A stretch of 64,000 bases of DNA from an uncultured Candidatus Saccharibacteria bacterium (GTDB taxonomy: Bacteria > Patescibacteriota > UBA1384 > XYA2-FULL-43-10 > 1-14-0-10-43-13), in the NCBI GenBank assembly GCA_964529405.1, contig CAZGWE010000003.1:17192-81191 (forward strand), given 5' to 3'. Both the position numbers and the translations under genes were made by a program. Below the pieces are notes generated by a model. That model saw only the letters and a list, made by a program, of their open reading frames with translations. It made no database searches and was not told where the DNA came from. The first letter of the stretch is position 1, and every line of letters begins with the position of its first letter. This document shows positions 1,524 to 16,438 of this stretch, in pieces.

Positions 1524-2522
1524 ATGCTTAACGGTAAAACGATTTTAATCACCGGCGGTACCGGTTCTTTCGGTAAAAAATTTACCGAAAGAATCTTTGC
1601 CGAATATAAACCGAAAAAGATCATCATTTACTCCAGGGACGAGTATAAGCAGTACATAATGCGGCGCCAGTACGCCAAGTATGATGAGCGGTTGCGCTTT
1701 TTCATCGGCGATGTCCGGGACAAAGAAAGGCTTTGGCGGGCGCTCAACGGCGTTGACATTGTTATCCATGCCGCAGCGCTTAAACACGTGCCGGTGGCGG
1801 AGTATAATCCGCTCGAAGCAATTAAAACCAATATCCATGGCGCCGAGAATGTTATTGATGCCGCTCTGGATCGCAACGTCAAAAGGGTCGTTGCTCTCTC
1901 AACAGATAAGGCAGTTAATCCGATCAATCTTTATGGCGCCACCAAGCTGGTCTCCGATAAACTTTTTGTCTCGGCTAATGCTTACTCCGGCCGGAATGGC
2001 ACAGTCTTTTCAGTTGTCCGTTACGGCAATGTCGCCGGCAGCCGCGGTTCGGTTATTCCCTACTTTAAATCATTGATTGAGGCCGGCGAAAAAGTTATTC
2101 CCATTACCGATTTTAGGATGACCAGATTTTTAATTACTCTAAACCAGGGCGTTGATCTGGTTTTCCGGGCTTTAAGCGAAGCCAAGGGCGGCGAAATTTA
2201 TGTCGCTAAAATTCCCTCGATTAAAGTAGTAGATTTGGCCCGGGCCATGCATGAACAGGTCGAATTGAAAGAAATCGGTATCAGGGAAGGTGAAAAACTG
2301 CACGAAGTTATGATCACGGAAGAGGATTCCCGCTCCACCCACGACTATGGCGACCACTTTATTATCTACCCCAACCTGGATTGGTGGAAACCGGAAGCTC
2401 GCTGCAAGCCCGGCAGCCAAAAAGTTAAGGATGGTTTCCGCTACTCCTCCGATCTCAACGACCATTGGCTCGGCGTTGGTGGAATAGCCGAGTTCTTAAG
2501 AACCATTGAAATAGTCTATTGA
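1524..2522 (+). CDS. pseB: UDP-N-acetylglucosamine 4,6-dehydratase (inverting), PseB/FlaA1/CapD-like short-chain dehydratase
   Basis: N-terminal ILITGGTGSFGK Rossmann motif, ~330 aa, and the YGATK catalytic motif, typical of PseB/CapD-type polysaccharide biosynthesis dehydratases. The RBS-like GGGAGC lies upstream. Confidence 0.75.
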   Translation: MLNGKTILITGGTGSFGKKFTERIFAEYKPKKIIIYSRDEYKQYIMRRQYAKYDERLRFFIGDVRDKERLWRALNGVDIVIHAAALKHVPVAEYNPLEAIKTNIHGAENVIDAALDRNVKRVVALSTDKAVNPINLYGATKLVSDKLFVSANAYSGRNGTVFSVVRYGNVAGSRGSVIPYFKSLIEAGEKVIPITDFRMTRFLITLNQGVDLVFRALSEAKGGEIYVAKIPSIKVVDLARAMHEQVELKEIGIREGEKLHEVMITEEDSRSTHDYGDHFIIYPNLDWWKPEARCKPGSQKVKDGFRYSSDLNDHWLGVGGIAEFLRTIEIVY

Positions 2523-2531
2523 GGCATCGTT

Positions 2532-3692
2532 ATGTCTAATCTTATCCCTTATGGGAGACAGTGGATTGACCAGGACGATATTCAAGCCGTCACCACAGTT
2601 TTAAAAAGTGATTATCTGACCCAAGGTCCCAAAGTCGAAGAATTTGAAAAAGCTCTTTGCGACTACACGGGGGCAAAATTTTGCCTTGCTCTTTCTAACG
2701 GCACGGCCGCGCTGCATTTGGCTGTCGCTGCCATGAAGATCGAGAAAAGCATGGAGGGAATTACCTCGCCCATCACCTTCGCCGCCTCCGCCAACTGCCT
2801 GCTCTATAACGGTCTAAAACCGGTTTTTGCCGATATTGATCCTAAAACCTATACGATTAGCCCGGATGAAATTAAAAAGAAGATTACCGCAAAAACCAAG
2901 GTGATAATTCCGGTCGATTTTGCCGGCCAACCAGCCGAGATGGAACAGATCTCCAAGATTGCCAGAGAAAAGGATATCTGTGTCGTTGAAGATGCCGCCC
3001 ACGCCATTGGCTCGCGGTATAATGACGGAAATCATGTCGGTTCGTGTAAATATTCCGATATGACTATTTTTTCCTTCCATCCGGTTAAGACAATCACCAC
3101 CGGCGAGGGTGGAGCAATTACAACTAACAATAGAGAGCTATACAAACATTTGCTATTGTTACGTTCCCACGGTATTACTAAAGATCAGGCTAAACTTGAG
3201 CAAAATCCCGGCCCATGGTATTACGAAATGCAAACGCTCGGTTTTAACTATCGCCTAACCGACATCCAAGCCGCCCTGGGCATCAGCCAATTAAAAAGAC
3301 TTGATAAGTTTGTTGAAAAACGGCGGGAAATTATCCGAAAATACAACAAGGCTTTCAAAGACCTGCCCGATATGGTTGTCCCTTATGAAAAAGATGGCGT
3401 CTTCTCTGCTTTCCATCTCTATGTTTTGCAAATTGATTTTAAAAAAATCGGCACAAGCCGCGAAGAGATAATGGCCAAATTAAGAGAAAAAAATATCGGC
3501 ACGCAGGTTCACTATATCCCCGTTCACCTACAGCCATATTACAGAAACAACTTTGGCTACAAACCAGGCGATTATCCGATTGCTGAACAATATTATGAAA
3601 AAGCAATCAGCCTGCCGCTCTATCCAAAAATGTCTGACTCCGATGTCAAATACGTTATAGAAAATTTCAAACGCGTCTTAGGTGGAAAGTAA
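2532..3692 (+). CDS. pseC: DegT/DnrJ/EryC1-family PLP-dependent sugar aminotransferase (PseC-like)
   Basis: 386 aa. The N-terminus (IPYGRQWIDQDD...) and overall length fit UDP-4-keto-6-deoxy-sugar aminotransferases. It lies immediately downstream of the pseB-like gene with a 9-nt spacer. Confidence 0.75.
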   Translation: MSNLIPYGRQWIDQDDIQAVTTVLKSDYLTQGPKVEEFEKALCDYTGAKFCLALSNGTAALHLAVAAMKIEKSMEGITSPITFAASANCLLYNGLKPVFADIDPKTYTISPDEIKKKITAKTKVIIPVDFAGQPAEMEQISKIAREKDICVVEDAAHAIGSRYNDGNHVGSCKYSDMTIFSFHPVKTITTGEGGAITTNNRELYKHLLLLRSHGITKDQAKLEQNPGPWYYEMQTLGFNYRLTDIQAALGISQLKRLDKFVEKRREIIRKYNKAFKDLPDMVVPYEKDGVFSAFHLYVLQIDFKKIGTSREEIMAKLREKNIGTQVHYIPVHLQPYYRNNFGYKPGDYPIAEQYYEKAISLPLYPKMSDSDVKYVIENFKRVLGGK

Positions 3693-3717
3693 GGCATTAT
3701 CGCTTTAATAAAGGAAA

Positions 3718-4158
3718 GTGATGCCAACAATTTTTATCGGTGCCGACCATGGTGGCTATAAAATTAAAAAACAAGTCAAGCTGTGGCTAAACCAAAAGCT
3801 TATCCCGTTCAATGACCTCGGCGCTGATTCAGAAGATAGCTGCGACTATCCTATATTTGCCCAAAAGGTAGGGCGCGCGGTTGTTGAGAATCAGGGCAAG
3901 GGTATTTTGATCTGCCGAAGCGGCCAAGGCATGTCAATCGCCGCCAACAAGATTAAGGGAATTCGAGCATGCCTTGCTTGGAATCCGGAGGTCGCAATAA
4001 AATCCAGGGAGCACAATGATGCCAATGTTCTATGCTTGCCAGCCGACTATATTAGCAACGACGATAGCGTTAGTATTGTAAAGGCATGGCTTTCTACTCC
4101 ATTTTCTGATGAAATAAGACATATAAAGAGAATCCGGATGTTAGATGAAATAAATTAA
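3718..4158 (+). CDS. RpiB/LacA/LacB-family sugar-phosphate isomerase
   Basis: 146 aa; IGADHGGYKIK N-terminus and ICRSGQGMSIAANK motif characteristic of ribose-5-phosphate isomerase B family. Confidence 0.6.
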   Translation: MMPTIFIGADHGGYKIKKQVKLWLNQKLIPFNDLGADSEDSCDYPIFAQKVGRAVVENQGKGILICRSGQGMSIAANKIKGIRACLAWNPEVAIKSREHNDANVLCLPADYISNDDSVSIVKAWLSTPFSDEIRHIKRIRMLDEIN

Positions 4159-4203
4159 TTCAACTTTTTCTGACAAGCTCGTAAGCCCTGATCAAAAACA
4201 AAG

Positions 4204-5520
4204 ATGTTAAATTTAAAACAAAACGGCATTTTCTTTGCCCAAAAAAGCCATCAACGTTTTTTTGGACCGGCGATCGATCCGGAGATGAGATTGTTTTTGG
4301 TTAATCTTTTTTGGTCTTTTTTGGGCGGCGGCATTGCTTCAGCCGGCTTGCTTTTGGTTAATATTTTAGCCGGTCGCTACATGGGGCCGAGCGAATACGG
4401 TAAGTATAATCTGGTCTTCGTTTTAAGCCAGTTCTTTATCTTATTCGTTTTCTGGGGTTTGGATATTGCCAGTATTAAAGCGATCGCTGCGAGTAAAACC
4501 AGAGCCGAGAAGGGCAAAAATTTATCCAGTGCCTCTGTCTTTTTGGTCTTAACGCTTGGACTTCTTAGTTTGATCGCTTTTCTTGTTTATAAACCGGCGG
4601 CACAATACTTTGCCCTCGATCAGTCGCTTCTCTTCATTTTGCTCATTCTTTCAATCCCGTTGACTCTTAAAGCCATGTTCGATGGCTTTATTCGCGGCCT
4701 AAGACTATTCAAAGTCCAATTTGTCGCCAAAACTCTCGAGTGTTTTACCATCATCGCTCTCTTTGTTTTAATCTTTGTCGTTCTTGATAAAAGAACTTAC
4801 GAATTTTATATCTACGTGCTGATTGCCGGAGCTTTAGTCTCTGCTCTGATTAATTTCTCTAAAGTTAAAAAATACTTCGACGGCTTTGACAAAAAATGTT
4901 TGCAAGACCAGCTATCCCATGGTAAGTTTTACTTTATTGCTACCATTATCGGCACGCTCTTCACTTCACTTGATCGATTATTAGTTGCCAAATATTTAAG
5001 CTACTACGAGCTTGGCATCTATGGTGCCTATTATACTGCTTCTGTCACGCTCACCTACCAGCTAACCCAAATGTTTATCAATGTCTTCTTGCCCTCCATC
5101 GCTCATTTGGAAAACAAAACTTTTGTTAGAAAGATTGATAATATCTTTACTAGAGCCATAATCCCTATTTACTTGACTGTTTTAGTCCTTGTTTTTGTGG
5201 CGGTAAAACTGTTTGGCGCCAGGTTTGGCCTTATCTGGGGTTATGTGTTTGGTTTTAGCCTGCTCGCCACGCTTCAGCTAATACAGGGAATCTATAATAC
5301 AATTGTCCTAACACTGTCCAAAGATTTGTACAAACGATCATTGTTATTAGTAAACATCAGCAATGTCATAATTTTTTCTACTTATATTCCCCTTGTTTAC
5401 TTTAAGCTGATCTCCATCTCTTGGATTTTGGGCATTTTAATCTTAAGCATTACCTCCGCGATAACAATCCAGCGAACCTTTATTGGCATTTCAATCAACA
5501 GGTTTAACCAAAAAACCTGA
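4204..5520 (+). CDS. polysaccharide/oligosaccharide flippase (Wzx-like, MOP superfamily)
   Basis: 438 aa with ~12 predicted hydrophobic helices and no soluble domain; positioned inside a glycan biosynthesis cluster. Confidence 0.55.
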   Translation: MLNLKQNGIFFAQKSHQRFFGPAIDPEMRLFLVNLFWSFLGGGIASAGLLLVNILAGRYMGPSEYGKYNLVFVLSQFFILFVFWGLDIASIKAIAASKTRAEKGKNLSSASVFLVLTLGLLSLIAFLVYKPAAQYFALDQSLLFILLILSIPLTLKAMFDGFIRGLRLFKVQFVAKTLECFTIIALFVLIFVVLDKRTYEFYIYVLIAGALVSALINFSKVKKYFDGFDKKCLQDQLSHGKFYFIATIIGTLFTSLDRLLVAKYLSYYELGIYGAYYTASVTLTYQLTQMFINVFLPSIAHLENKTFVRKIDNIFTRAIIPIYLTVLVLVFVAVKLFGARFGLIWGYVFGFSLLATLQLIQGIYNTIVLTLSKDLYKRSLLLVNISNVIIFSTYIPLVYFKLISISWILGILILSITSAITIQRTFIGISINRFNQKT

Positions 5521-5549
5521 AACATTTGGACTTATCGTTCGCTCTCTAC

Positions 5550-6095
5550 TGAACCCACTCTATCGGCTGCAAGCCGATAGGTTCAGCACAGCGCTAAAGC
5601 ACCCTTGCTAATTGGCGTCGAGAATTGTAAAGGAATCACCGCGTTTGTCAGCATCTTCATCTTGATTCTCGATGTATTCCATGATCATTTCATCAGTAAT
5701 GTTTCCGGAGGATACGGCGCAGTAGCCTCTTCCCCACAGATGCTGTCCCCAAAACTGTTTGTTTAATTGAGGGAATTCCTGCAGTAGCTTTCTTGATGTT
5801 TTACCCTTGATATATTGTGAGATTTTGGAGATAGATATTTGCGGGGGATAAGAGATAAAGATGTGGATGTGATCCTTGCTTATATGACCGCGGATTATTT
5901 CAATGTTATGAGCGTCGCAGACTTCACGGATTAAATCCCTGACCCTGATGCCCACCTTATTGGTTAATATTGGTTTACGATATTTGGTCGCCCATATCAG
6001 ATGACACTTTATGTCAAATTGTGTATGAGAACCATTGCGATATATTTGCATAGCCAGAGTATACCATCTTGAAAGGATCGGCTAAAGCCGAGGGG
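5550..6095 (-). mobile_element. IS200-type (tnpA-only) insertion sequence with matching subterminal hairpins
   Basis: Imperfect palindrome TGAACC-CACT-CTATCGGCT-GCA-AGCCGATAG-GTTCA at 5550-5587 and a related hairpin GGATCGGCTAAAGCCGAGG at about 6074-6092 share the ATCGGCT/AGCCGA stem. They flank tnpA as expected for IS200/IS605 LE/RE. No tnpB is present. Confidence 0.6.
5608..6051 (-). CDS. tnpA: IS200/IS605-family transposase TnpA (Y1 HUH transposase)
   Basis: 147 aa; HIHIFISYPPQ HuH motif, KYRKPIL, and catalytic-Tyr-region SQYIKGKTSRKLL, typical of IS200 TnpA. Confidence 0.85.
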   Translation of the reverse strand: MQIYRNGSHTQFDIKCHLIWATKYRKPILTNKVGIRVRDLIREVCDAHNIEIIRGHISKDHIHIFISYPPQISISKISQYIKGKTSRKLLQEFPQLNKQFWGQHLWGRGYCAVSSGNITDEMIMEYIENQDEDADKRGDSFTILDAN

Positions 6096-6162: not shown

Positions 6163-7056
6163 TTGACAGCTAAAGGCCTTATCCGATTAAATGGTTCTAT
6201 GAACAAACTAGCCTTAGGCACGGTTCAATTTGGACTCGATTACGGCATCAACAACAAAGTCGGAAAAGTACCCGAGAGCGAGGTCTTTGCTATTTTGGAT
6301 TATGCCAAAAAAATTGGTATTAATACTTTGGATACTGCCTCGAGCTATGGCGAAAGCGAGAAAGTCCTTGGACAATACTTTGTCAAGAGAGGATCTGATA
6401 ATTTACAGATTGTCTCCAAATTCGCTGAAGCAGCGAATGTCTTATCTGACATTAAAACATCACTGCAAAACTTGAAGACAAACAGGCTTTACGCTTACCT
6501 GCTTCATCACTTTGAATCTCTGAAGCAACAACCCGACCTTTACAAAGAAATGGTTAAATTAAGAGAAGAAGGTTTAACGCAAAAGATTGGCTTCTCTCTC
6601 TATTATCCCCATGAACTACAATATTTACTGGATCGCTCCATCCCCTTTGATCTTGTTCAAGTGCCCTATAACATTTTCGATCAACGTTTCCTGCCCTACT
6701 TTGCCAAACTAAAAAAGGAAGGCAAAGAGATTCATGTCCGTTCAGCCTTTCTACAGGGATTAATTTTTAAAAATCCAAGCGATATACCCCCCTATCTGCA
6801 AGACATGAAGAAAAAACTTGAAAAACTACACCAACTTTCCTTGGAAAGTGAAATTCCTTTAGCAGCCATGGCTCTTAACTTCTGTACTAGCAACCCCTAT
6901 ATCGGCAAGGTAGTCATTGGCGTTGACAGCCTCAAGAATTTGCAGGATAATTTCTCTGATCTATCCCACCAGCAAGCCGTCGTCAACCTCATATCCGAAC
7001 TATTAGGACTTAGAGAAGATAATGAAGAACTAATTTTGCCAATCAACTGGAAATAG
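6163..7056 (+). CDS. aldo/keto reductase family oxidoreductase
   Basis: LALGTVQFGLDYG ... DTASSYGESE motifs of AKR superfamily; start uncertain (ATG 6163 or 6199). Confidence 0.7.
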   Translation: MTAKGLIRLNGSMNKLALGTVQFGLDYGINNKVGKVPESEVFAILDYAKKIGINTLDTASSYGESEKVLGQYFVKRGSDNLQIVSKFAEAANVLSDIKTSLQNLKTNRLYAYLLHHFESLKQQPDLYKEMVKLREEGLTQKIGFSLYYPHELQYLLDRSIPFDLVQVPYNIFDQRFLPYFAKLKKEGKEIHVRSAFLQGLIFKNPSDIPPYLQDMKKKLEKLHQLSLESEIPLAAMALNFCTSNPYIGKVVIGVDSLKNLQDNFSDLSHQQAVVNLISELLGLREDNEELILPINWK

Positions 7057-7072
7057 TCTTTGGATCTAAACT

Positions 7073-9157
7073 ATGGATATTATTGCAATTATTCAAGCCA
7101 GAGTCGGTTCGACCCGCTTACCTAATAAAGTTCTTTTACCATTGGGTGGCAAAACTGTACTCGAGCAGGTTGCGAGCCGAGTCGGCAGAAGCAAGCTTAT
7201 CAACAAGGTAATGGTCGCCACGACTACAAATAGTGACGATGACGCTATTGTTGAAATATTAGAAAAAGCTGGAATAGAGAGTTTCCGCGGCTCTGAAAAT
7301 GACCTTCTTGACCGCTATTACCAAGCAGCCAAACTTCATAAGCCAAAACATATAGTTAGAATCACGGCCGACTGTCCTCTAATTGATTCCGACGTCATTG
7401 ATGCAGTGATCAGTCTTCATCTTAAGGACAAAAATGATTATACTGCAAGCGCTTTCGTTGAAACCTTTCCGGATGGTCTTGATGTTGATGTAATGACCTT
7501 TAAGGCTCTTGAGGAAAGCTGGAAAAATGCCACCATTCCCTATCAAAGAGAGCACGTCACTCAATTCATCGCCAAAAATCCCCATCGGTTCAAAATAGGC
7601 AATCACTATCATACCGAGAACCTGTCTGATAAGCGATGGTGCATGGACGAACCCAATGATTATGCTTTCGTCGAGGCTGTTTACAGCGCGCTTGGGGCCG
7701 AGCGGGACTATTTCGGAATGGAAGATGTTTTGCGCTTCTTGTCGGCTAATCCAGATGTAGAAAAAATCAATCAAAACATCATCCGGAACGCCGGCATCTT
7801 AAAATCGACTGGCGCCGAGGCTGATTTGTTATTAGAAAGGAAAACGATGAGAACCGGACAAAATCTCTACAAGCGCGCCAAGGGCATTATTCCCGCCGGC
7901 ACGCAAATTCTTTCCAAGCGGCCGGAGCTGCACCTGCCAGGAGGCTGGCCCTCCTACTACAAGAAGGCCAAAGGCTGCGAAATCTGGGATATGGATGGCA
8001 AAAAATATGTTGATATGAGCTATATGGGTATTGGCGCCTGCGCTATCGGTTACGCCGACCCCGATATTGATAAAGCCGTTAAAAAAACTATCGACAACGG
8101 TATTGCCGCTACATTTAATTCACCAAAGGAACTCGAGCTGGCCGATATGCTTTTGGAGCTGCACCCATGGGCAGATATGGTTCGTTATGCTTGCGGCGGC
8201 GGCGAGATTATGGCTATTGCCATCAGAATTGCCCGGGCCAAATCCGGCAAGGACAAGGTGTTGTTTTGCGGCTATCACGGCTGGCACGATTGGTACTTAA
8301 GCTCCAACCTTGCTGACGATAAGGCGCTTGACGGCCACCTCTTACCCGGTCTGAAACCGCTCGGCGTACCACGCGCCTTAAAGGGTACGGCCATGCCATT
8401 TATGTACAACGATACCGAAGCTTTCTTGAAGTTAGCCAAGAAGCACAAAGGTGAAATCGGTGCTGTTGTCATTGAAGGTATGAGGAGTTATGAACCAGTA
8501 AAGGGTTTTTTGGAAACTATCAGAAAAGTAACCAAAGAGGAAAAAATTCCATTTATTATTGATGAAGTCTCATCAGGTTTTCGCTTGACCACCGGCGGCG
8601 CTCATATAAAGCTGGGCATTAAGCCAGATATGGCAGCCTTCGCTAAAGCTCTGGGTAACGGCTATCCAATTGCCGCCGTTATTGGCAAAAAAGAGGTCAT
8701 GGATGTGGTTGAGGACTGTTTTATTAGCTCAACCAACTGGTCAAATAATGTTGGCTTTGCTGCTGCTATCGCATCCTTGAAAAAGATGAAGGAGAAGCAC
8801 GTTGTCGACCATTTAATTAAGATGGGTAAAAAGGTGCAAGACGGCTGGGCAAAGATGGCTAAAAAAAACGGAGTTAATATTCACCTCTCCGGATTCTATG
8901 CCATTGGCCACTTTGATTTTGAATATGAAAATCCGCTAGTCTTAAAAACCCTCTTTACTCAAGAGATGTTAAAGCGAGGTTTCCTGGCAACCAACGCCTA
9001 CTACGCTTCGTATGCCCACAAAACCAAGCACATTAAAGCGTATTTAGAAAAGTGCGACGAGGTCTTTGCCATTGTTGCTGAAGCTATCAAATCAGGCAAG
9101 CCGGAAAGTTATTTAGAAGGGAATATCTGCCATGCCGGATTTAGAAGACTCACCTAG
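7073..9157 (+). CDS. bifunctional fusion: N-terminal acylneuraminate/CMP-sugar cytidylyltransferase-like (SpsF/PseF-like) domain + C-terminal class-III aminotransferase (glutamate-1-semialdehyde aminomutase-like)
   Basis: The N-terminus IIQARVGSTRLPNKVL ... ITADCPLID matches the CTP_transf_3 family. The C-terminal half (GWPSYYKKAKGCEIWDMDGKKYVDM ... GYHGWHDWY ... DEVSSGFR) matches HemL-like class-III PLP enzymes. Confidence 0.65.
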   Translation: MDIIAIIQARVGSTRLPNKVLLPLGGKTVLEQVASRVGRSKLINKVMVATTTNSDDDAIVEILEKAGIESFRGSENDLLDRYYQAAKLHKPKHIVRITADCPLIDSDVIDAVISLHLKDKNDYTASAFVETFPDGLDVDVMTFKALEESWKNATIPYQREHVTQFIAKNPHRFKIGNHYHTENLSDKRWCMDEPNDYAFVEAVYSALGAERDYFGMEDVLRFLSANPDVEKINQNIIRNAGILKSTGAEADLLLERKTMRTGQNLYKRAKGIIPAGTQILSKRPELHLPGGWPSYYKKAKGCEIWDMDGKKYVDMSYMGIGACAIGYADPDIDKAVKKTIDNGIAATFNSPKELELADMLLELHPWADMVRYACGGGEIMAIAIRIARAKSGKDKVLFCGYHGWHDWYLSSNLADDKALDGHLLPGLKPLGVPRALKGTAMPFMYNDTEAFLKLAKKHKGEIGAVVIEGMRSYEPVKGFLETIRKVTKEEKIPFIIDEVSSGFRLTTGGAHIKLGIKPDMAAFAKALGNGYPIAAVIGKKEVMDVVEDCFISSTNWSNNVGFAAAIASLKKMKEKHVVDHLIKMGKKVQDGWAKMAKKNGVNIHLSGFYAIGHFDFEYENPLVLKTLFTQEMLKRGFLATNAYYASYAHKTKHIKAYLEKCDEVFAIVAEAIKSGKPESYLEGNICHAGFRRLT

Positions 9158-9698
9158 CCAAATTAAAACCAAACTTAAGGCCGAATTTAAGACTGTTGGC
9201 ACTCGCCCAAAATCACCTCTCGAATCCTTTGACGGGATCGTTGTTCTGTCTGCCGAAGAGACAGATATCTCCGGCGAAAATAAGGAACGTCTTTTAGCCG
9301 GTCTTAACCTTATGGTCAAGATAAAAACGGGCGGCAATTTTATTTTCCTTGGCACCAAAATCCACAACGCCGGCGCAGAGAATTATATCTTGCAAAACCA
9401 CCCCGATATTGAGGCAAACTTTCCCGCTAAACGGAAAGAGGCCTCAACCAGAACGCAGATAAAGGACCTTTCAGCCTTTCTGCATAAAAAACCTCTCTCA
9501 AAGCTTTTGATAGTCTCGCAAGCCTATCACATACCGCGCATTGACCGTTACTGCCAAAGATATATGCCGGATCAATTATATGATGTCTCTCCGGTCGGCG
9601 ATATTAAATCATACGCCAAACAAGTTGAAGTCGAAATTAATAAGATCATCAAATACGCCGGCCAGGGGGACCTGGATCTTTTTCTAACGCACAATTAA
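9132..9698 (+). CDS. DUF218 (YdcF/SanA-like) domain protein
   Basis: 188 aa; IVVLSAEE ... SQAYHIPR resembles the DUF218 signature (xYHMxRA). Overlaps upstream gene by 26 nt. Confidence 0.35.
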   Translation: MPDLEDSPSQIKTKLKAEFKTVGTRPKSPLESFDGIVVLSAEETDISGENKERLLAGLNLMVKIKTGGNFIFLGTKIHNAGAENYILQNHPDIEANFPAKRKEASTRTQIKDLSAFLHKKPLSKLLIVSQAYHIPRIDRYCQRYMPDQLYDVSPVGDIKSYAKQVEVEINKIIKYAGQGDLDLFLTHN

Positions 9699-10628: not shown

Positions 10629-11820
10629 GAAGAACAAAATTCATGTCGCCGTGCAAACCAGCTCTATCAATTGGTCAGGTGGGAAGAATTTAGACGCGAA
10701 AATAATCAATGACCATCCGGTTGTATATTGGACAATTAAAAATATTATCGACCATATTCCAGATTCGTCGATCACTGTGGTTGCTCCAGAATTCGATAAA
10801 GACGGCTCCTTTAACACCCTGCCAACCGAGATCAACCACTCGATCTCCCTCTATTTCGGGTTTGACAATAGCCCGCTAGACAGGCTATTGTCAGCTTTTA
10901 ACCTTTTGGGGGACAATGACTATATCCTCCGTATCGACGGATTGAACTTTGGCTTTAATGGAAAAAAAGCTGTCGAGATGTATAAATACGCGCATGAACA
11001 TGAATTAGACTGCCTAAAATTTCCGGACGACTTCCCGATACACTTCACTTTAGATGTTTACCGGCTGGGAGCGCTAAGGCTTGTCAGGAAACTGCTTACA
11101 AAAAGTGATGACGTCTATAAGATCCATCCAAAGTATTATATGTTTATGCATCCGAATAAATTTAAAGTTGCGCATTATACAAATCTGCCGTCGTATCCAG
11201 ATATAAAATTACAAGAACTGCGACAGCTTTATCAATCGGTCTTTGAAATCCGGGAGGGAGATGTTGGCCGTCGAATCAAGACCGGAGATCAGCTTAACTT
11301 TCATTATGAATTAGCAAGTGAATATGTTGCTAAAAAGATGGATGTATTAGACATTGCCTGCGGAGAAGGTTATGGCACAGAAATATTGTCAAGGAGAGCA
11401 AAGCGCGTTATTGGCGCTGACTTAGATGATCCTGCCGTCAGGAAAGCCGCTAAGATACATCAGAATAAAAATCTGGAGTTCAGAATCGAAAATGCTCTCA
11501 GCACCTCATTTGATGACGAAAGCTTCGATATGATTACCAGTATGGAAACAATCGAACACATAAAAGAAGACATGAAGTACCTGAAAGAGATAAGGCGCAT
11601 CTTAAAGAAAGGCGGCTATTTCATCTTTAGCACTCCCCAAAACCGTCTCGGCCACGTTCCAATGAACAACGAGCACGTCCGCGAATACTCTTTGGAAAAA
11701 CTAAAAAAGATTGTCGGGCAGTATTTTACAATTGAAAAAATTATCGGCATCAAACAAGGACGGATTATTTTTTCCAATGACCCGCTTGGCACAAACACTA
11801 TTTTAGTCTGCCGAAAGTAA
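10618..11820 (+). CDS. bifunctional fusion: cytidylyltransferase-like (CMP-sugar synthetase-like) N-domain + class I SAM methyltransferase C-domain
   Basis: The N-terminus IHVAVQTSSINWSGGKNLDAKIINDHPVVYWTI fits the NeuA/CTP_transf_3 pattern. The C-terminus LDIACGEGYGTEIL ... METIEHI ... KKGGYFIFSTP is a Methyltransf_11-type domain. The start is taken at ATG 10618, 16 codons into the longer track ORF that begins at 10570. Confidence 0.55.
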   Translation: MKNKKNKIHVAVQTSSINWSGGKNLDAKIINDHPVVYWTIKNIIDHIPDSSITVVAPEFDKDGSFNTLPTEINHSISLYFGFDNSPLDRLLSAFNLLGDNDYILRIDGLNFGFNGKKAVEMYKYAHEHELDCLKFPDDFPIHFTLDVYRLGALRLVRKLLTKSDDVYKIHPKYYMFMHPNKFKVAHYTNLPSYPDIKLQELRQLYQSVFEIREGDVGRRIKTGDQLNFHYELASEYVAKKMDVLDIACGEGYGTEILSRRAKRVIGADLDDPAVRKAAKIHQNKNLEFRIENALSTSFDDESFDMITSMETIEHIKEDMKYLKEIRRILKKGGYFIFSTPQNRLGHVPMNNEHVREYSLEKLKKIVGQYFTIEKIIGIKQGRIIFSNDPLGTNTILVCRK

Positions 11821-11825
11821 AGTTA

Positions 11826-12953
11826 TTAATCCTCGAAATGACCGGTCGTTAATGGCTCTCGGGCTTTGATCGGTTTTCTAATCTTTCGACCTCGAAATAG
11901 ATGGAAGTTTTTTGGTTCGATTCCGCCCCAAGGACGCAAAGAGATAATTTTATCCTCTGTCACAATGTCGCCAGGCTTCATATCAGCAGCCGCATAAATA
12001 GAGCGTCTGGACCAACGGTCAAATATCTCATCACCTTTGTGCCCCGGCTTGGAAACCGGTTGTTTGATGCCGCCGCCGGAAAGCGCCGCTTCGGTGTTGC
12101 GAACCTCTTTAACAAAACGTTGAAATTCAGACACTTCCATTGAATTTGGGTCGTCATTACTACCACCCTCTCGCTCGTCGGTAATATGTTTTTCAATAAC
12201 GCATGCACCGAGCGCCACTGCCGCGATTGAAGCAGCGATATATGGGGGTTCGGAATGGTCAGAGTAGCCAACCGGTAATTTAAAAGCCTCTCTCAAAGTT
12301 GTGACGGCACGCAGGTTTAGATCAGAGAATTCCGGCGGATACATTGAAATGCAATGCATCAAAACGATCTGATTATTGCCAGCATCTCGGATAACTTTGA
12401 CAGCATGCGCCACCTCCTCCAAGTCAGCCATACCAGTAGAGAGAATAATCGGACGACCCTTCCCGGCAATATGAGTTAACAGAATATCATCAACGAGTTC
12501 ATAAGAACCAACTTTATAAGCACCGACATTAGCTTCGTCCAAGATATCAACCGCCTCTTTATCAAAGGGAGTCGAGAGGAAGATAATGCCAATCTTTTTG
12601 GCATAAACCGCAAGTTTATCTGTCCACTCGTACGGCATTTCAGCTGATTTAAAGAAACCGGAGAGCGTACCAACATTCTTGCCATTCCAATTATCAAAGA
12701 CTTCTACATCGGCGGCGATCTTATCGTGAGTTATGTGTTGAAATTTGACTACATCCGCACCTGCTTCTTTGGCTTTATCAATCAACTTGTAAGCATTGTT
12801 GATATCACCTCTATGGTTAGCGCCAACTTCCGCAATAATTAAAGTTGGCTGTCCATGACCGATAAGCCGGTCTCCAATTTTGATTGTCTCTAACGGTTCA
12901 AAATTCAGCTGTTTCGGTAAACTTTTATAAAATTTATCTCTTTCTTTGCCCAT
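11826..12953 (-). CDS. N-acetylneuraminate/pseudaminic acid synthase family (NeuB/PseI-like) with C-terminal SAF domain
   Basis: 375 aa; TLIIAEVGANHRGD, GADVVKFQ, ILSTGM, VGYSDHS motifs of NeuB TIM-barrel; C-terminal SAF-like tail. Confidence 0.8.
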   Translation of the reverse strand: MGKERDKFYKSLPKQLNFEPLETIKIGDRLIGHGQPTLIIAEVGANHRGDINNAYKLIDKAKEAGADVVKFQHITHDKIAADVEVFDNWNGKNVGTLSGFFKSAEMPYEWTDKLAVYAKKIGIIFLSTPFDKEAVDILDEANVGAYKVGSYELVDDILLTHIAGKGRPIILSTGMADLEEVAHAVKVIRDAGNNQIVLMHCISMYPPEFSDLNLRAVTTLREAFKLPVGYSDHSEPPYIAASIAAVALGACVIEKHITDEREGGSNDDPNSMEVSEFQRFVKEVRNTEAALSGGGIKQPVSKPGHKGDEIFDRWSRRSIYAAADMKPGDIVTEDKIISLRPWGGIEPKNFHLFRGRKIRKPIKAREPLTTGHFED

Positions 12954-13312: not shown

Positions 13313-14551
13313 ATGGGCAACACTAATAATAAAACCATACTTTTACTTGGCGCAGGAGCCGAACAACAGATCGCGATCGAGCTGGCAAAGGAGATGGGAT
13401 ATCGCGTGGTGGCTGCTGACGGCAATCCCAAAGCTCCCGGACTGGCTCTGGCCGATGTCGCCATTGCCGATGACATTAAAAATATTGAAAAGATGATTGA
13501 GGTCGGCAAAAAGCACAAAGTTGATGGGGTAATGACCCATGGGGTCGAAATCCCCCACATCATCTCTCGAATAGCCAAGGCCCTAAACTTACCGGGAATC
13601 GATCCGGAGATTGCCGACCGGACTACGTTTAAATCGGAGCGCATTAAGTATTTAAAAAGGGCCGGCATCAATGTCCCGGAATTTGTGGCTGTTAAGACCG
13701 TAAGCGAGGCTAAAAAGGCTGCTAAAAAGATCGGTTATCCGGTCGTAATCAAGCCGACGGATAACGCCGGTGCCAGGGGCGTAAAAGTTGTCAATAACGC
13801 CGCTGAACTCGAAAAGGCCTTTAACGAATCGCTTGGCTACTCCCATAACCGGGAGATTCTAATTGAACAACTGCTAAGCGGATTAGAGATCAGCACCGAG
13901 TCGTTGGTTTATAACGGCAAAATCTACACCACCGGCTTTGGGGATCGGAACTACTCAAGGAACATTGAATTTTATCCTTATTTTGTTGAGGATGGCCACA
14001 ATGTCCCCTCCGCCCTGCCGGCCGAAACCCAGAGAAAGATTATCTCCGAAGTCGAAAAGACAATCCGGGCCCTTGGTATTACCTGGGGCGTTGCTAAAGG
14101 CGATATCCTGGTAAACAAGAGCGATGACAAGGTTTATGTTCTTGAAATGGCCTCGCGGACCAGCGGAGGCTGGTTCTGCGCCGGCACCGTACCCCTGGCC
14201 ACCGGCGTCCACATTCTGAAACCCCTGATTAAAATGAGTGTTGGCGACCCTGTTGATGAAAACGACCTTAAACCAACCAAAGATCTGGCTGCCTGCCAAA
14301 GATATGTTATTCCAAGCCGTGACGGTACATTTATTAGAATTGAAGGTGTCAAAAAGGCCGGAAAGATGCCTGGAGTGGAGATGCTGGTGATATTCAAGCA
14401 ACCCAAGCGGGGCGAGTTAATCCACAAATCGACCAACCATTCGGAGAGGTTCGGCCAATTAATTGCTGTTGGCAAGGATGTGAAAGACGCCACCAAGAAG
14501 TGCGAAGAAGCCATCAGTTGTATCAGGGTGGTACTGGGTAAGGTTGAATAA
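13313..14551 (+). CDS. ATP-grasp domain enzyme (carboxylate-amine ligase-like)
   Basis: 412 aa; TILLLGAGAEQ pre-ATP-grasp, GYPVVIKPTDNAGARGV and LVLEMASR ATP-grasp motifs. Confidence 0.6.
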   Translation: MGNTNNKTILLLGAGAEQQIAIELAKEMGYRVVAADGNPKAPGLALADVAIADDIKNIEKMIEVGKKHKVDGVMTHGVEIPHIISRIAKALNLPGIDPEIADRTTFKSERIKYLKRAGINVPEFVAVKTVSEAKKAAKKIGYPVVIKPTDNAGARGVKVVNNAAELEKAFNESLGYSHNREILIEQLLSGLEISTESLVYNGKIYTTGFGDRNYSRNIEFYPYFVEDGHNVPSALPAETQRKIISEVEKTIRALGITWGVAKGDILVNKSDDKVYVLEMASRTSGGWFCAGTVPLATGVHILKPLIKMSVGDPVDENDLKPTKDLAACQRYVIPSRDGTFIRIEGVKKAGKMPGVEMLVIFKQPKRGELIHKSTNHSERFGQLIAVGKDVKDATKKCEEAISCIRVVLGKVE

Positions 14552-14573
14552 TATTACTTACAGGCTAGAATAA

Positions 14574-15458
14574 ATGGATTCAAGACAAAGAGAGAAGCTA
14601 AGAAAATATTTTGCCCAAGACCTTGGTTGGGGCTGGGCCAGAAATTATCAGGCGAAGAGAGTCTTTGATTTTCTGATTGAGGCTGCCGACTTCTGCCGAG
14701 GAGGAATTGTTCTCGATGCAGGCGCCGGACATCAACGTTACCGGCCATTTTTTGATCAATCACTCTATCTGTCCCAGGAACATGAAAGCGGTGTCAACTT
14801 TAAAGGCATGAACAATATCAACTACGACCTTATCAGTCCGGTTGATGTCAAAATACCACTTAAAGACAATTGTTTAGACGGAGTACTATCAACTTCTGTC
14901 ATTGAGCATATGGAGAATCCCCGAGAGTTCTGCAAGGAAGCTTATCGGGTGCTGAAACCGGGCGGCAAGCTGTTTATTAATGTGCCCTTCTCTATCATCG
15001 AGCACGAAAGACCATTCGATTTTACCCGGCCTACGCGCTACGCCTTGAAAAAATGGATGGAAGAGGCCGGTTTTAGTGATTTCCTGATTGAGCCATCGTC
15101 CTCCTGCACCGAAACAGTCTGCAATGTGCTGCCCATAACCGTTTACTGCGACTTTTTACAAACAGACCAGGGCTACAAAAAAAATTTGGCTGAAAATTTT
15201 GCCAGCTCTAAAAACATAATCGTAAAGCTATATTATACTTTCAGGGTTTTTGTGGCTGCTATCCTCTATCTAGCCACCAAAATACTAAGCTTTCTCTTAA
15301 AACTGTTAATTGACCGCGGACCATACGATAAGGCGCTGTTGCCGGTTGGCTGGATTGTTGTCGCCACTAAACAAGGCAAGATAACGCAAAATAGCAAAAC
15401 ACCGGATCGAAAAACTTTCTTGGCCAAGTTTGCCCTAGCCGATAAAAAGACAAGATGA
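14574..15458 (+). CDS. class I SAM-dependent methyltransferase with C-terminal membrane helix
   Basis: VLDAGAGHQ, IEHMENP, LKPGGKLFINVP motifs; hydrophobic C-terminal segment. Confidence 0.6.
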   Translation: MDSRQREKLRKYFAQDLGWGWARNYQAKRVFDFLIEAADFCRGGIVLDAGAGHQRYRPFFDQSLYLSQEHESGVNFKGMNNINYDLISPVDVKIPLKDNCLDGVLSTSVIEHMENPREFCKEAYRVLKPGGKLFINVPFSIIEHERPFDFTRPTRYALKKWMEEAGFSDFLIEPSSSCTETVCNVLPITVYCDFLQTDQGYKKNLAENFASSKNIIVKLYYTFRVFVAAILYLATKILSFLLKLLIDRGPYDKALLPVGWIVVATKQGKITQNSKTPDRKTFLAKFALADKKTR

Positions 15459-16438
15459 ATATTCAGAAACTCATCGAAAGCTATCTCGACATGGAGGCAT
15501 ATGGCAGCAATATTATTATCAAGGAATATTGCCGATTTCCCAAATGCCTTCCCTTGCCTTGCCATATGGAACATGGCTGGACTCCGATTCCCAATGCTCT
15601 GGTTACGGATTTAGTTATTGCCAGCAAGAAAAATATTATGCTGGTTTTCAGTGATCGGCGATTAAAATTTTGGCAAAAAGCCAGCAAGGTTCCGGTTTAT
15701 GTTATTGGCGCACCGTTCGTTCACTATCGCCGGATGGCCAACATTACCCCAAACCCAAAATCTCGAGGTACCATAGTTTTTCCAAGTCATTCAACGATCT
15801 TTTTGCAAAGCCAATACAATATCGATGAATACTGCAACAAACTGAAAAATCTACCCATGAAATTTCATCCAATTACTATCTGCTTACTCTACCCCGATAT
15901 CAAATTAGGTCGGGATAAGGAGTATCGAAAACGCGGCTTCAAGGTGGTCTCGGCTGGAAGAAAATTACGGGGCAGTAAAAAATTTCCGTTTAACTTTTAT
16001 AAAATTCTCGCCAACCACAAATATGCCACCTCAAACGAAATAGGCACATATACTTTTTATTCGATTGAGTTTGGCCTGCCATTCTTTCTGTCTGGCGATG
16101 AGCCAACAGTCGTTAACATTGGCGACAAAGATCCCAACAGCCATGGCAGTGGAAAAAATAGCGATTATGCCTTGGGCAAAAAGGTATTTGATTTATTCAA
16201 TGTTGGGACAAATGCCGTCATTACACCCGAGCAGCAGCAGCTAGTTAAAGACGAACTTGGCATAGAAAATCACATCGACCCCAAAAAGCTAAATAAGATA
16301 CTCTGGTCCAACACCAGAAATTTGCGTTATTGGCTAAAGTACGTACCAATGTACTGCCTGTTAACTTTTATTAAATTTGTCATCCCGCAAAATCTTGCTT
16401 ACTGGATTATTGAACGCAAGAACAAAAAGCCTGCTTGA
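15455..16438 (+). CDS. hypothetical protein (possible glycosyl/sialyl-transferase-like)
   Basis: 327-aa complete ORF with a 4-nt overlap with the upstream gene (operon-like). No motif I can name. Context only. Confidence 0.3.
   Translation: MNIQKLIESYLDMEAYGSNIIIKEYCRFPKCLPLPCHMEHGWTPIPNALVTDLVIASKKNIMLVFSDRRLKFWQKASKVPVYVIGAPFVHYRRMANITPNPKSRGTIVFPSHSTIFLQSQYNIDEYCNKLKNLPMKFHPITICLLYPDIKLGRDKEYRKRGFKVVSAGRKLRGSKKFPFNFYKILANHKYATSNEIGTYTFYSIEFGLPFFLSGDEPTVVNIGDKDPNSHGSGKNSDYALGKKVFDLFNVGTNAVITPEQQQLVKDELGIENHIDPKKLNKILWSNTRNLRYWLKYVPMYCLLTFIKFVIPQNLAYWIIERKNKKPA

Follow-up and report, generated by a model that had tools for sequence, protein, structure and literature searches.

In prophages of Acinetobacter baumannii, EpaA, a fusion of a cytidylyltransferase (CT) and an aldo-keto reductase (AKR), and the SDR EpaB turn Pse5Ac7Ac into its 8-epimer, as seen by NMR (PMC12053666). 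Vibrio B9-25K2 likewise has a CT fused to an AKR, plus a dehydrogenase, and makes a PseAc2 isomer whose mass is unchanged (PMC7371886), and genetic work in Bacillus subtilis found SpsF to act at the activation/transfer step (PMC7439481). 8-Amino-3,5,7,8,9-pentadeoxy-nonulosonic acid occurs naturally (PMC3210612). A literature search for CT–aminotransferase fusions found no biochemical data for any of them.

We analyzed a cluster of 14 ORFs in a 64-kb stretch of DNA (hereafter, the window; Table 1) from a Patescibacteria genome whose DnaA is closest to Berkelbacteria-like genomes. With moderate confidence, we read the region as a locus in which a nonulosonic acid of the pseudaminic type is made, tailored, and exported, one of its carbons being remodeled by an AKR and an aminotransferase. 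The CT and AKR pair matches EpaA, although EpaA has the two fused and the window has them as adjacent genes; the partner is an aminotransferase here, whereas it is the SDR EpaB in the Epa system. The AKR/aminotransferase pair is an add-on module that would probably alter one position of the pseudaminic-type sugar. All the genes listed in an earlier, sequence-only reading of the cluster were located where it had placed them, with strong statistics overall and a marginal match for the DUF218 protein (28.9 bits, cut-off 27.6).

Table 1. Features of the cluster, with positions in the window
Feature	Length (aa)	Position	Strand	Match
pseB, UDP-GlcNAc 4,6-dehydratase (inverting)	332	1524..2522	+	TIGR03589; PF02719, E 4e-106
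pseC, UDP-4-amino-4,6-dideoxy-N-acetyl-beta-L-altrosamine transaminase	386	2532..3692	+	TIGR03588
rpiB-family sugar-phosphate isomerase	146	3718..4158	+	NF004051, 159 bits (cut-off 135)
Wzx-like flippase	438	4204..5520	+	PF01943, E 1e-20; PF13440
IS200-type Y1 transposase, between wzx and AKR gene		5608..6051	-	PF01797 (Y1_Tnp), E 5e-42, full-length
Aldo-keto reductase (AKR)	297	6163..7056	+	PF00248, E 4.5e-35
SpsF/EpaA-type CT domain of 694-aa fusion; proposed CMP-nonulosonate synthetase		7073..7810	+	PF02348, E 1e-31
Class-III (GSA-aminomutase-like) PLP aminotransferase domain of 694-aa fusion		7811..9157	+	PF00202, E 4.5e-43
DUF218 protein, overlaps end of fusion gene	188	9132..9698	+	PF02698
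SAM methyltransferase (Methyltransf_23)	304	9714..10628	+	PF13489, E 1e-25
Degenerate SpsF-like CT-fold domain, N-terminal half of 416/400-aa protein		10618..11340	+	HHalign
SAM methyltransferase domain (Methyltransf_11), fused to pseudo-CT		11341..11820	+	PF08241, E 3e-23
NeuB-family nonulosonate synthase, PseI-like	375	11826..12953	-	PF03102, E 1e-79
ATP-grasp ligase, L-amino-acid-ligase type	412	13313..14551	+	PF02786, PF07478, PF18603 (LAL_C2)
SAM methyltransferase, C-terminal hydrophobic hairpin	294	14574..15458	+	PF08241, E 5e-12
Orphan GT-B-fold protein	327	15455..16438	+	no family match

The first two enzymes were identified by the NCBI equivalog cut-offs. PseB scored 529.6 bits (cut-off 407.75) and PseC 541.1 bits (cut-off 423.5) against their models. 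For the dehydratase, the FnlA and LegB models scored far under their own cut-offs, and the LegC family was rejected for the transaminase (252 against 420). The NeuB homolog was closest to PseI (TIGR03586) among NCBIfam models, its 312.9 bits falling below the cut-off of 340.25, and reached 299.2 bits against NeuB_NnaB (cut-off 399.65); its neighbors among solved structures were SpsE (197 bits), Campylobacter jejuni PseI (195), and NmNeuB (162). At two fingerprint residues separating the synthases of the Pse and Neu/Leg pathways (PMC7371886), it carries Tyr where Pse enzymes have Phe and Neu/Leg enzymes Gly, and Ser at the N184 position, as in Pse enzymes; by score and by these residues, the enzyme is PseI-like. 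Family membership shows a predicted route from UDP-GlcNAc to UDP-4-amino-4,6-dideoxy-beta-L-AltNAc through PseB and PseC, and a predicted condensation of the released hexose with PEP by the PseI-like enzyme. The sequence-only reading had proposed a nonulosonic-acid cluster unless the dehydratase proved PglF/CapD-like and the synthase a KDO-8-P synthase or NeuB sensu stricto; we found neither, the dehydratase being an inverting PseB equivalog and the synthase nearest to PseI.

The CT domain of the 694-aa protein (residues 4–203) is the sole CTP_transf_3-like match in the window besides a degenerate domain discussed below. Its closest solved structure is 6oew (151 bits), and within the family neither the CTP-binding S13, R15, and K19 nor the D100-C-P motif varies. 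A placement among PseF, LegF, NeuA, and PtmB, as suggested earlier, suits neither CT of the cluster: the active one is of the SpsF/EpaA type and scored 27.7 bits against the PseF model (cut-off 205.7). The sequence-only reading had missed that its fusion partner is a class-III aminotransferase. This second domain scored 259 bits with NF004856 and 244 bits with GntE, both under the cut-offs, and its solved neighbors are GSA aminomutases, an aminopentol aminotransferase, and aminoglycoside C-6' aminotransferases. Two residues, D497 and K525, do not vary within the family and, from the GSA-aminomutase fold, are taken as the putative PLP-binding Asp and Schiff-base Lys.

The cassette is not unique to the window, and the CT/aminotransferase and AKR module is widespread. 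The fusion protein occurs in many phyla, and at least 585 species representatives, as well as viral contigs, carry it with AKR, NeuB, PseB, and PseC neighbors; the earlier description of the cluster as unusually rich is thus overstated for its core, and the trio of methyltransferase, pseudo-CT-methyltransferase, and ATP-grasp ligase is also found again in another phylum. We counted co-occurrence among 40 fusion-bearing loci with full flanks. NeuB accompanies the CT/aminotransferase in 37, DegT in 33, a PseB-like gene in 31–32, and the AKR, a steady partner, adjoins it in 34–36. Gene fusions also tie the four activities together: CT with class-III aminotransferase (the window and thousands of homologs), CT with AKR (EpaA; Vibrio), DegT with AKR (Woesearchaeota locus L003), and GNAT with aminotransferase and CT (P0059). 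In one otherwise homologous cassette (L170), an SDR takes the place of the aminotransferase; its AKR (46% identical to that of the window), CT, methyltransferase, pseudo-CT-methyltransferase, ATP-grasp ligase, and NeuB are 30–56% identical to their counterparts here.

We propose that the AKR and the fused aminotransferase would form a redox/transamination pair remodeling one carbon of the nonulosonate, probably C8. As the SDR of the Epa system is replaced here by an aminotransferase, the most likely order would be oxidation of the C8 hydroxyl to an 8-keto group by the AKR and its conversion to an 8-amino group by the aminotransferase, followed by CMP activation; the target position (C8 or C4) is suggested solely by the analogy with Epa. 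AKRs are usually reductive rather than oxidative, which counts against the AKR as the oxidizing partner and favors the reverse reading, in which the pair removes nitrogen or merely epimerizes: the class-III enzyme would turn the free 7-amino group, made by PseC and left unacetylated without PseH, into a ketone and the AKR would reduce this to a hydroxyl or epimeric center, so that a 9-deoxy-nonulosonate, either mono-amino or epimeric, would result. Should Epa-like modules keep the AKR as their fixed reductase, keto formation would fall to the partner that varies, the SDR or the aminotransferase; the class-III fold also covers racemases and a C-6' epimerase, and the equal-mass isomer from Vibrio fits an epimerization. 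We nevertheless consider this reading unlikely. Both PseG and GNAT are found in 14 of the 40 loci, where the full di-N-acetyl pathway leaves no free amine to deaminate; aminating and then deaminating one carbon would be wasteful when the 4-keto product of PseB is directly reducible; and the GNAT-aminotransferase-CT triple fusion suggests an amine product that is then acetylated.

In the preferred reading, amination at C8, the 694-aa protein would make the CMP-sugar with its CT domain; no other CT in the window is intact. This CT domain may serve something other than CMP-nonulosonate synthesis, since a true PseF adjoins the SpsF-type CT in some loci: L050 has a bona fide PseF (TIGR03584, 280 bits), NeuA/PseF-type CTs are present in L007 and L055, and an additional PseF-type CT occurs in 4–5 of the 40 loci. 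Moreover, L002 combines the fusion with two AKR genes and a Glyphos_transf gene and has no NeuB within 10 kb. The CT, aminotransferase, and AKR might then make a CMP- or CDP-activated amino-alcohol or similar compound, which a TagF-like 327-aa GT-B protein would transfer as a phosphodiester onto a glycan, with the true PseF, PseG, and PseH encoded outside the window. This is improbable, as the SpsF-type enzyme is the only CT beside NeuB in 35–36 of the 40 loci and both B. subtilis SpsF and A. baumannii EpaA belong to nonulosonate pathways. Furthermore, the 327-aa family has only 56 homologs, all from loci resembling that of the window, against a CT/aminotransferase spread over many phyla, and a Pfam search assigned it to no family, Glyphos_transf included.

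In agreement with the sequence-only reading, which had recognized neither PseG nor PseH, no scanned ORF of the window matched Glyco_tran_28_C (PseG), GNAT (PseH), or a PseF-type family, and local HMMs from bona fide PseG, GNAT, and PseF gave zero matches among stop-to-stop ORFs of at least 70 aa over the whole 64 kb; the genes could lie elsewhere than in the window, whose source contig is listed at 86.8 kb. That these missing steps and the IS200 element between wzx and the AKR gene mark a decaying or nonfunctional remnant is highly improbable, because two independent Patescibacteria loci (L001 and L007) keep the same gene content at 50–64% protein identity, likewise with no PseG or PseH in the fetched stretches, all 14 ORFs are uninterrupted and full length relative to their families, the element falls between genes and is encoded on the opposite strand, and a nearby PseG is missing from half of the fusion-bearing loci. 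The 327-aa GT-B protein is a candidate for either the CMP-nonulosonate transferase or the missing NDP-sugar hydrolase: in our preferred reading it would pass the CMP-sugar to a lipid-linked glycan, or else it would stand in for PseG as a UDP-sugar hydrolase.

Of the two CT-like domains reported earlier, the first is clear, and the second was recovered as a homolog solely by profile–profile comparison. This domain, the N-terminal ~240 aa of a 416-aa ORF, had no Pfam or NCBIfam match even at E = 1 but aligned with the CT family in HHalign with a probability of 99.5% (E 2e-22). It has 117 representative homologs, most of them ~400 aa long, and the CTP-binding and DCP motifs are gone family-wide (QARxxSxRLPxK to QASSxSWxG and RxTxDCP to RxDGLN). 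The domain is a genuine but degenerate CT homolog with its catalytic motifs lost, which fits the option of a repurposed cytidylyltransferase raised earlier. Three methyltransferases would put on methyl groups, one of them steered by this catalytically dead domain, putatively still binding the cytidine-nucleotide sugar. The fused methyltransferase domain is 56% identical to its L170 counterpart; the 304-aa enzyme is 43% identical to MT306 of L170 and has homologs in L001, L007, and 7 of the 40 loci, and the 294-aa enzyme has hydrophobic segments at residues 215–246. The ATP-grasp ligase has 4dim and the L-amino-acid ligase BL00235 as solved neighbors and homologs in L001, L007, and L170, with no GNAT gene in the fetched stretch of any of these. 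As the canonical acetyltransferase PseH is absent, the ligase is a candidate for its replacement, probably N-acylating a free amine (N7 and/or the new one) using an amino acid or another carboxylic acid. The methylated or amidated product envisaged by the sequence-only reading is plausible given these enzymes. The DUF218 gene directly 3' of the CT/aminotransferase recurs in L001 and L007 and in just 1 of the 40 other loci.

The product would be flipped by Wzx, which has ~12 hydrophobic segments and a homolog within the cassettes of L001, L006, and L007. Glycosylation of pili or a VirB2-like fiber had been suggested, yet nothing ties the sugar there, and no Maf-type Pfam family was found among the ORFs scanned; the surrounding genes (rml genes and those for the flippase, GT2 transferases, and conserved polytopic membrane proteins) point to a surface glycan linked to a lipid. 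RpiB, previously counted among the tailoring enzymes, probably lies outside the nonulosonate pathway and more likely belongs with the downstream pentose-phosphate genes: its gene is present in 0 of the 40 related loci and is also absent from L001 and L007. The IS200 transposase within the cluster had gone unnoticed in the sequence-only reading; in the syntenic L001, pseC is followed directly by the AKR gene.

ORF calling and family scans placed 14 intact genes, 12 of them on the forward strand, in the interval 1524–16438, and every member of the cluster that the sequence-only reading had named was recovered. That gene list was correct as far as it went, but it had missed a class-III aminotransferase (AT-III) joined to the first cytidylyltransferase (CT) domain and an IS200 element.

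Genes of the nonulosonate cluster, with coordinates in the window and supporting matches
Product	Position	Strand	Match or remark
PseB	1524-2522	+	TIGR03589, 529.6 bits (cut-off 407.75); inverting UDP-GlcNAc 4,6-dehydratase/5-epimerase
PseC	2532-3692	+	TIGR03588, 541.1 bits (cut-off 423.5); aminotransferase specific for the L-arabino 4-keto sugar
RpiB	3718-4158	+	
Wzx-type flippase	4204-5520	+	
IS200 Y1 transposase	5608-6051	-	between wzx and the AKR gene
Aldo-keto reductase (AKR)	6163-7056	+	
694-aa fusion protein	7073-9157	+	CTP_transf_3 domain and class-III aminotransferase
DUF218 protein	9132-9698	+	marginal match
Methyltransf_23 enzyme	9714-10628	+	
416-aa protein			C-terminal half is a Methyltransf_11 domain; more likely 400 aa, from the ATG at 10618
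NeuB-family synthase	11826-12953	-	
ATP-grasp ligase	13313-14551	+	LAL_C2 domain of L-amino-acid ligases
Third methyltransferase	14574-15458	+	C-terminal hydrophobic hairpin
327-aa ORF	15455-16438	+	no family

In L001, a related locus fetched for comparison, the AKR gene directly follows pseC, in contrast to the window, and rpiB, wzx and the IS element therefore look like later insertions. RpiB, which had been counted among the tailoring enzymes, was rejected in that role as it is conserved in no related locus. Decay of the cluster is unlikely because the ORFs are intact and the synteny is conserved. A search for solved relatives of the DUF218 protein gave none that were informative.

The best NCBIfam model for the synthase was PseI (312.9 bits, under the cut-off of 340.25), with NeuB_NnaB at 299.2 bits. 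Against the PDB, it matched B. subtilis SpsE (197 bits), an enzyme assigned to the legionaminic acid (Leg) pathway, and C. jejuni PseI (195 bits) equally, and N. meningitidis NeuB at 162 bits. A published active-site fingerprint has one position occupied by Gly in sialic-acid-type (Neu) and Leg enzymes and by Phe in pseudaminic acid (Pse) enzymes, while at position 184 Pse enzymes have Ser, Leg enzymes Tyr, and Neu enzymes either Asn or Tyr (PMC7371886). The aligned window synthase reads K-V-G-S-Y-E, with Tyr at the Phe/Gly discriminator, and H-C-I-S-M-Y-P, with Ser at 184; an aromatic residue combined with Ser gives the Pse pattern. The proposal of a nonulosonate cluster thus held, as the enzyme is no KDO-8-P synthase and lies nearest to PseI, and we read the locus as a Pse-type nonulosonate locus.

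With the canonical PseB-PseC-PseH-PseG-PseI-PseF pathway of Campylobacter jejuni and Helicobacter pylori, the window shares the PseB and PseC equivalogs and the PseI-like synthase, but it lacks the GNAT PseH, the GT28-like hydrolase PseG and a PseF-type CT. Pfam and NCBIfam scans and local jackhmmer detected no PseH/GNAT among the ORFs of the 64-kb window, and family scans found no Glyco_tran_28_C/PseG or NeuA/PseF-type CT among the ORFs scanned across the 64 kb. We also built search HMMs from bona fide PseG (20 sequences), GNATs and PseF-type CTs of the related loci, the representatives of which score 334 bits on TIGR03590 (PseG) and 280 bits on TIGR03584 (PseF-type CT). Among stop-to-stop ORFs of at least 70 aa in the 64 kb, the PseG and GNAT models had zero matches, and the sole match of the PseF-type model was a weak one on the CT domain of the fusion. 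The three canonical genes may sit beyond the window, as the source contig (86.8 kb) extends past it; the stretches fetched for L001 and L007, another related locus, contained no PseG or PseH gene either. The end product must be a CMP-activated nine-carbon sugar, and the window's candidates for the PseH, PseG and PseF steps are the SpsF-type CT, the ATP-grasp ligase and the orphan GT-B-fold protein of 327 aa.

With 27.7 bits on TIGR03584 (cut-off 205.7), the fusion's CT domain is not a PseF. The models nearest to it were those of KdsB-like subfamilies, well under their cut-offs, its nearest structure was the unannotated 6oew, and JGI labels homologues "SpsF". In the AT-III domain, D497 and K525 are invariant, and we read them as the PLP Asp and Lys. 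Its nearest solved relatives were GSA aminomutases, followed by an aminopentol aminotransferase and the aminoglycoside C-6' aminotransferases and epimerase; those beyond the GSA aminomutases act on carbonyls of sugars or polyols. Literature searches for a characterized role of AT-III or AKR in nonulosonate clusters gave no biochemistry.

The fusion proved to be common. Homology to the 694-aa architecture at E ≤ 1e-10 was found for 7,999 of the 8,000 candidates scored, and a scan of one genome per species identified the CT-aminotransferase in at least 585 species. The carriers include Prochlorococcus, Synechococcus, Pelagibacteraceae, Leptospira, Marinobacter and Moorena as well as Lachnospiraceae, Sphingobacterium, Patescibacteria, Woesearchaeota and Methanosarcinales; hundreds of species thus carry the module, the most abundant bacteria of the sea and the viruses of these among them. 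We counted neighbors in the 40 loci having full 10-kb flanks. NeuB was present in 37, an AKR adjacent to the CT-aminotransferase in 34–36, a DegT/PseC-like gene in 33 and a PseB-like gene in 31–32. GNATs were found in 27 loci and PseG in 20, ATP-grasp ligases (6 loci) and an extra PseF-type CT (4–5 loci) being rarer, and the complete PseB/C/H/G/I set occurred in 14. The gene order in L001, whose fusion is 64% identical to that of the window, is PseB-PseC-AKR-MT-ADH-ATP-grasp-fusion-DUF218-NeuB-MT-Wzx-318 aa-GT2 (MT, SAM methyltransferase), and that in L007 is Wzx-PseF-like CT-AKR-CT-AT-III-DUF218-MT-ATP-grasp-...-NeuB-327-family-GT2. These closer relatives repeat the particular set of the window. 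Its core is thus a common, conserved cassette, and the parts specific to Patescibacteria are the DUF218 protein, the 327-aa family and the absence of PseG and PseH.

Two further sets of loci carry related genes. Among 80 CT-bearing viral loci from IMG/VR (L090–L169), AT-III lay beside the CT in 43, and PseB-like, NeuB and AKR genes were present in 41, 21 and 12, respectively; viruses therefore seem to encode or carry the sugar-remodeling module, and one of the CT-carrying viral contigs is a giant-virus MAG. In a Woesearchaeota locus (L003), a 1334-aa protein (12433–16437) combining GNAT, B12-binding radical-SAM, HAD and ATP-grasp domains adjoins the CT/aminotransferase, and a DegT-AKR fusion, a sulfotransferase and an APS kinase are also present, giving even more elaborate tailoring on seemingly the same core pathway.

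Gene fusions link all four activities in several combinations: CT with AT-III in the window and its homologues, DegT with AKR in the Woesearchaeota locus, and GNAT with AT-III and CT in the protein P0059. CT-AKR fusions have been described in Vibrio sp. B9-25K2 (PMC7371886) and as EpaA (PMC12053666). In the window, AKR and CT belong to separate genes, the first ending 16 bp ahead of the second. A functional parallel comes from prophages of A. baumannii, in which EpaA (CTP_transf_3 and Aldo_ket_red) together with the short-chain dehydrogenase (SDR) EpaB converts Pse5Ac7Ac to 8-epi-Pse5Ac7Ac, as demonstrated by complementation and NMR (PMC12053666). Shared with the Epa module, which acts on a Pse-type substrate, is a non-NeuA CTP_transf_3 domain coupled to Aldo_ket_red; the window differs in its separate AKR gene and in the CT being joined to AT-III, and the likeness to EpaA is one of domain content. 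The window cluster contains no adh_short gene for an EpaB/AciE-like SDR, and AT-III occupies that place. An EpaA-like CT-AKR fusion was also sought in phage records and IMG/VR, and CT/aminotransferase cassettes were returned instead.

The two arrangements are connected by L170, a locus from a genome with a T9SS-tail protein. It has the order AKR-SDR-CT-PseG-MT-(pseudo-CT-MT)-ATP-grasp-...-NeuB, where pseudo-CT denotes a degenerate CT-like domain, and is thus an unfused AKR-SDR-CT version within a cassette homologous to that of the window (identities of 46% for AKR, 36% for CT, 43% for MT, 46–56% for pseudo-CT-MT, 30% for ATP-grasp and 40% for NeuB). The presence of an SDR in a homologous cassette indicates that SDR and AT-III are alternative partners of one AKR and CT pair.

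Other characterized or described clusters share parts of this set. The nab cluster of Vibrio sp. B9-25K2 has PseB and PseC in common with the window and an SpsF-like CT-AKR fusion replacing NeuA/PseF, but it retains PseG and PseH, and a dehydrogenase stands where the window has the aminotransferase; the sugar made by this strain, with its CT-AKR fusion and dehydrogenase, matches PseAc2 in mass and differs in fragmentation pattern (PMC7371886). The sps genes of B. subtilis (SpsM, C, D, G, E and F) share the SpsF-type, COG1861-like CT as activator, and spsF mutants still make Leg while its transfer is lost, as expected for the activating enzyme (PMC7439481). In contrast to the window, sps follows the retaining Leg route with the GNAT SpsD and the PseG-like SpsG and is without the aminotransferase fusion, AKR, ATP-grasp ligase and methyltransferases (PMC7439481). 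In the LPS locus of Legionella pneumophila strains outside serogroup 1, a GSA-aminomutase-like AT-III, a non-NeuA CT and an aryl-alcohol dehydrogenase/AKR lie adjacent and unfused inside a nonulosonate O-antigen cluster, which, unlike the window, also holds PseG, a GNAT and acetamidino HisH/HisF-type genes (PMC3694923).

These parallels suggest a chemistry in which the AKR would oxidize one hydroxyl, that at C8 by analogy with Epa, and the variable partner would then act on the ketone: an SDR would reduce it from the other face to an epimer, and AT-III would aminate it to an amino sugar. The CT would make the CMP derivative of the remodeled sugar. We infer this scheme as the simplest model that also fits the 14 loci in which PseB/C/H/G/I are all present. 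Amination at C8 specifically, drawn from the Epa analogy, is possible rather than probable. A nonulosonic acid of this kind, 8-amino-3,5,7,8,9-pentadeoxy-nonulosonic acid, occurs in Flexibacter (Tenacibaculum) maritimus (PMC3210612), and the literature searched contained no report of its biosynthesis; if the scheme is true, the module would be the biosynthetic route to tri-amino nonulosonic acids.

Two alternatives bear on this scheme. The substrate of the SpsF-type CT may not be a nonulosonate, a view favored by the additional true PseF of some loci and by the resemblance of the GT-B protein to TagF; in most of the loci counted it is nevertheless the only CT next to NeuB, and SpsF itself behaves as the activator of Leg. 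Alternatively, AT-III may deaminate or epimerize instead of aminating, and its solved relatives include an epimerase alongside the aminotransferases. Returning to oxidation followed by amination, the joint reading would be that AT-III joined to an SpsF-type CT and working with AKR forms an unrecognized and very widespread system that swaps a hydroxyl of a Pse-type sugar, probably at C8, for an amino group before CMP activation; its carriers would be viruses and at least 585 species, as diverse as Prochlorococcus, Pelagibacter, Leptospira, Patescibacteria and archaea, with an ATP-grasp ligase and the orphan GT-B protein replacing PseH and PseG in Patescibacteria. We put this forward tentatively, as possible rather than probable in its entirety. 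The main value of the locus lies in giving a testable hypothesis for a widespread module and candidate noncanonical replacements of PseG and PseH in Patescibacteria. The exchange of SDR and AT-III beside one CT and AKR pair, together with the EpaA/EpaB result, poses a concrete in vitro question, namely whether an amino-substituted Pse is made.

The 327-aa protein has no Glyphos_transf or other Pfam match, and its family profile gave only noise against PDB sequences. An AlphaFold2 model based on a 36-sequence alignment contains the two Rossmann domains of a GT-B fold. The protein resembles TagF and was compared with TagF-like CDP-alditol phosphotransferases and GT-B sialyltransferase-like enzymes; H112 is invariant and H40 nearly invariant in the family alignment. 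The best structural matches bind cytidine nucleotides, and in L001, L007 and a further related locus, L006, the gene of this family directly follows NeuB or Wzx and precedes GT2 genes, whatever the upstream tailoring set. The pathway requires a CMP-sugar transferase as well as a UDP-sugar hydrolase, and the 327-aa protein is a candidate for either. The nucleotide specificity of the matches and the flippase and GT2 neighbors favor a CMP-sugar transferase, an assignment that we consider plausible at slightly less than an even chance, over a UDP-sugar hydrolase, which appears unlikely. A divergent PseG recognizable by sequence was rejected, the HHalign probability against PseG being 0.2%. The locus thus puts forward an orphan GT-B family as a candidate for a missing step.

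Without PseH, the 4-amino group introduced by PseC would have to be acylated by other means. The ATP-grasp ligase belongs to the L-amino-acid-ligase type and accompanies the absence of GNATs in the window and in the stretches fetched for L001, L007 and L170, which suggests that an amino acid or another carboxylate is attached to the nitrogen at the expense of ATP. The three methyltransferases would methylate the acyl substituent or the sugar, and the last one, with its hydrophobic hairpin, may act at the membrane. Decoration of the N-acyl groups of Pse or Leg by extra enzymes such as amide ligases and methyltransferases is seen in Clostridium botulinum, with its N-methyl-glutamyl legionaminic acid, and in the Ptm-type tailoring of Campylobacter flagellin. 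The window would follow the same idea, but no PtmA-H, PseA or Maf homologues were recognized here and the export setting, with Wzx and GT2 proteins, is not flagellar.

One of the methyltransferases is joined to the second CT-like domain (10618–11340). This domain has no Pfam or NCBIfam match and only 5.3 bits on the CT-family HMM, so that both Pfam and a plain HMM missed it and HHalign alone recovered it: an alignment of 74 homologues matched the SpsF-type CT family with a probability of 99.5% (E 2e-22), indicating a homologous fold. The CT motifs QARxxSxRLPxK and RxTxDCP are replaced throughout the family by QASSxSWxG and RxDGLN/H, and R10, R15, K19 and D100-C-P, conserved among the CTs, are all substituted family-wide. 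Judged by its sequence, the domain is a real but degenerate CT homologue, and we infer that it is a nucleotide-sugar-binding module that has lost CMP transfer and presents the substrate to the fused methyltransferase. The two cytidylyltransferase fusions reported from the sequence alone are therefore of different kinds, the first being a common fusion of an SpsF/EpaA-type CT with AT-III and the second a fusion of a methyltransferase with a dead CT-like domain.

Elsewhere, the window encodes dnaN, recF, a PilB-like ATPase, YidC, rmlABCD and several GT2 genes, and a 720-aa membrane protein (29070–31232) has homologues of 25–28% identity beside the nonulosonate cassette in L001, L006, L007 and L050. 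No Maf (DUF115)-type family member was found among the ORFs scanned across the window. The combination of Wzx, GT2, rml and polytopic proteins without Maf points to a lipid-linked surface glycan. The earlier interpretation had correctly placed a nonulosonate cluster here, but its further suggestion of pili or another fibre as the glycosylation target was not supported: the context does not point to direct cytoplasmic glycosylation of such a structure, and nothing in the window ties fibres to the sugar cluster. Three large polytopic membrane proteins without Pfam matches are encoded on the reverse strand at 1–1395, at 27163–28896 and at 29070–33310; the 720-aa protein, with GT2 genes on both sides, may be a polymerase, ligase or oligosaccharyltransferase of the glycan. 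A 1044-aa protein (49101–52235, forward strand) has a C-terminal T4SS-pilin domain (PF18895) as its only recognizable domain, and a PilB/GspE-type ATPase (53036–54700, reverse strand) is encoded near it.

Nonulosonic acids are major surface determinants with roles in how phages and antibodies recognize the cell, in escape from immunity and in building flagella and S-layers. Patescibacteria live attached to host cells, and to our knowledge almost nothing has been established about their surface chemistry; from the locus, we predict for this group a Wzx-exported glycan bearing an acidic sugar that is methylated and N-acylated.

Directly downstream of the cluster lies a pentose-phosphate-type gene set (16646–22059, forward strand), to which rpiB more likely belongs. 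It starts with a 961-aa protein with about eight hydrophobic segments, including GtrA, and with ribulose-phosphate 3-epimerase, Pol-beta-type nucleotidyltransferase and histidine phosphatase domains, followed by a 218-aa protein with weak DUF1045/phosphonate-operon similarity and then by AraD (L-ribulose-5-P 4-epimerase, 318 bits), an NTP transferase and a second GtrA protein. The set resembles a pathway to a pentose or pentitol linked to a nucleotide or a lipid and was found beside the nonulosonate cassette in no related locus. Further downstream, a 339-aa ORF (22244–23263, reverse strand) lies in a local G+C peak of 0.55 compared with about 0.44; it has only a faint Inositol_P match but contains the motif DPLDGS, as IMPase/CysQ-type phosphatases typically do, and genes of the Inositol_P family adjoin NeuB in L007 and L170. 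An RNA gene in the high-GC stretch at 22–24 kb was rejected, as there was no Rfam match and the stretch encodes the divergent IMPase-like protein. DnaA (56910–58343) shares 62–68% identity with proteins that carry the names Patescibacteria group or Candidatus Berkelbacteria. The replication origin probably falls within the window: dnaA, dnaN and recF lie within 56910–61143 on the forward strand, and around 58 kb the cumulative GC skew begins to rise.
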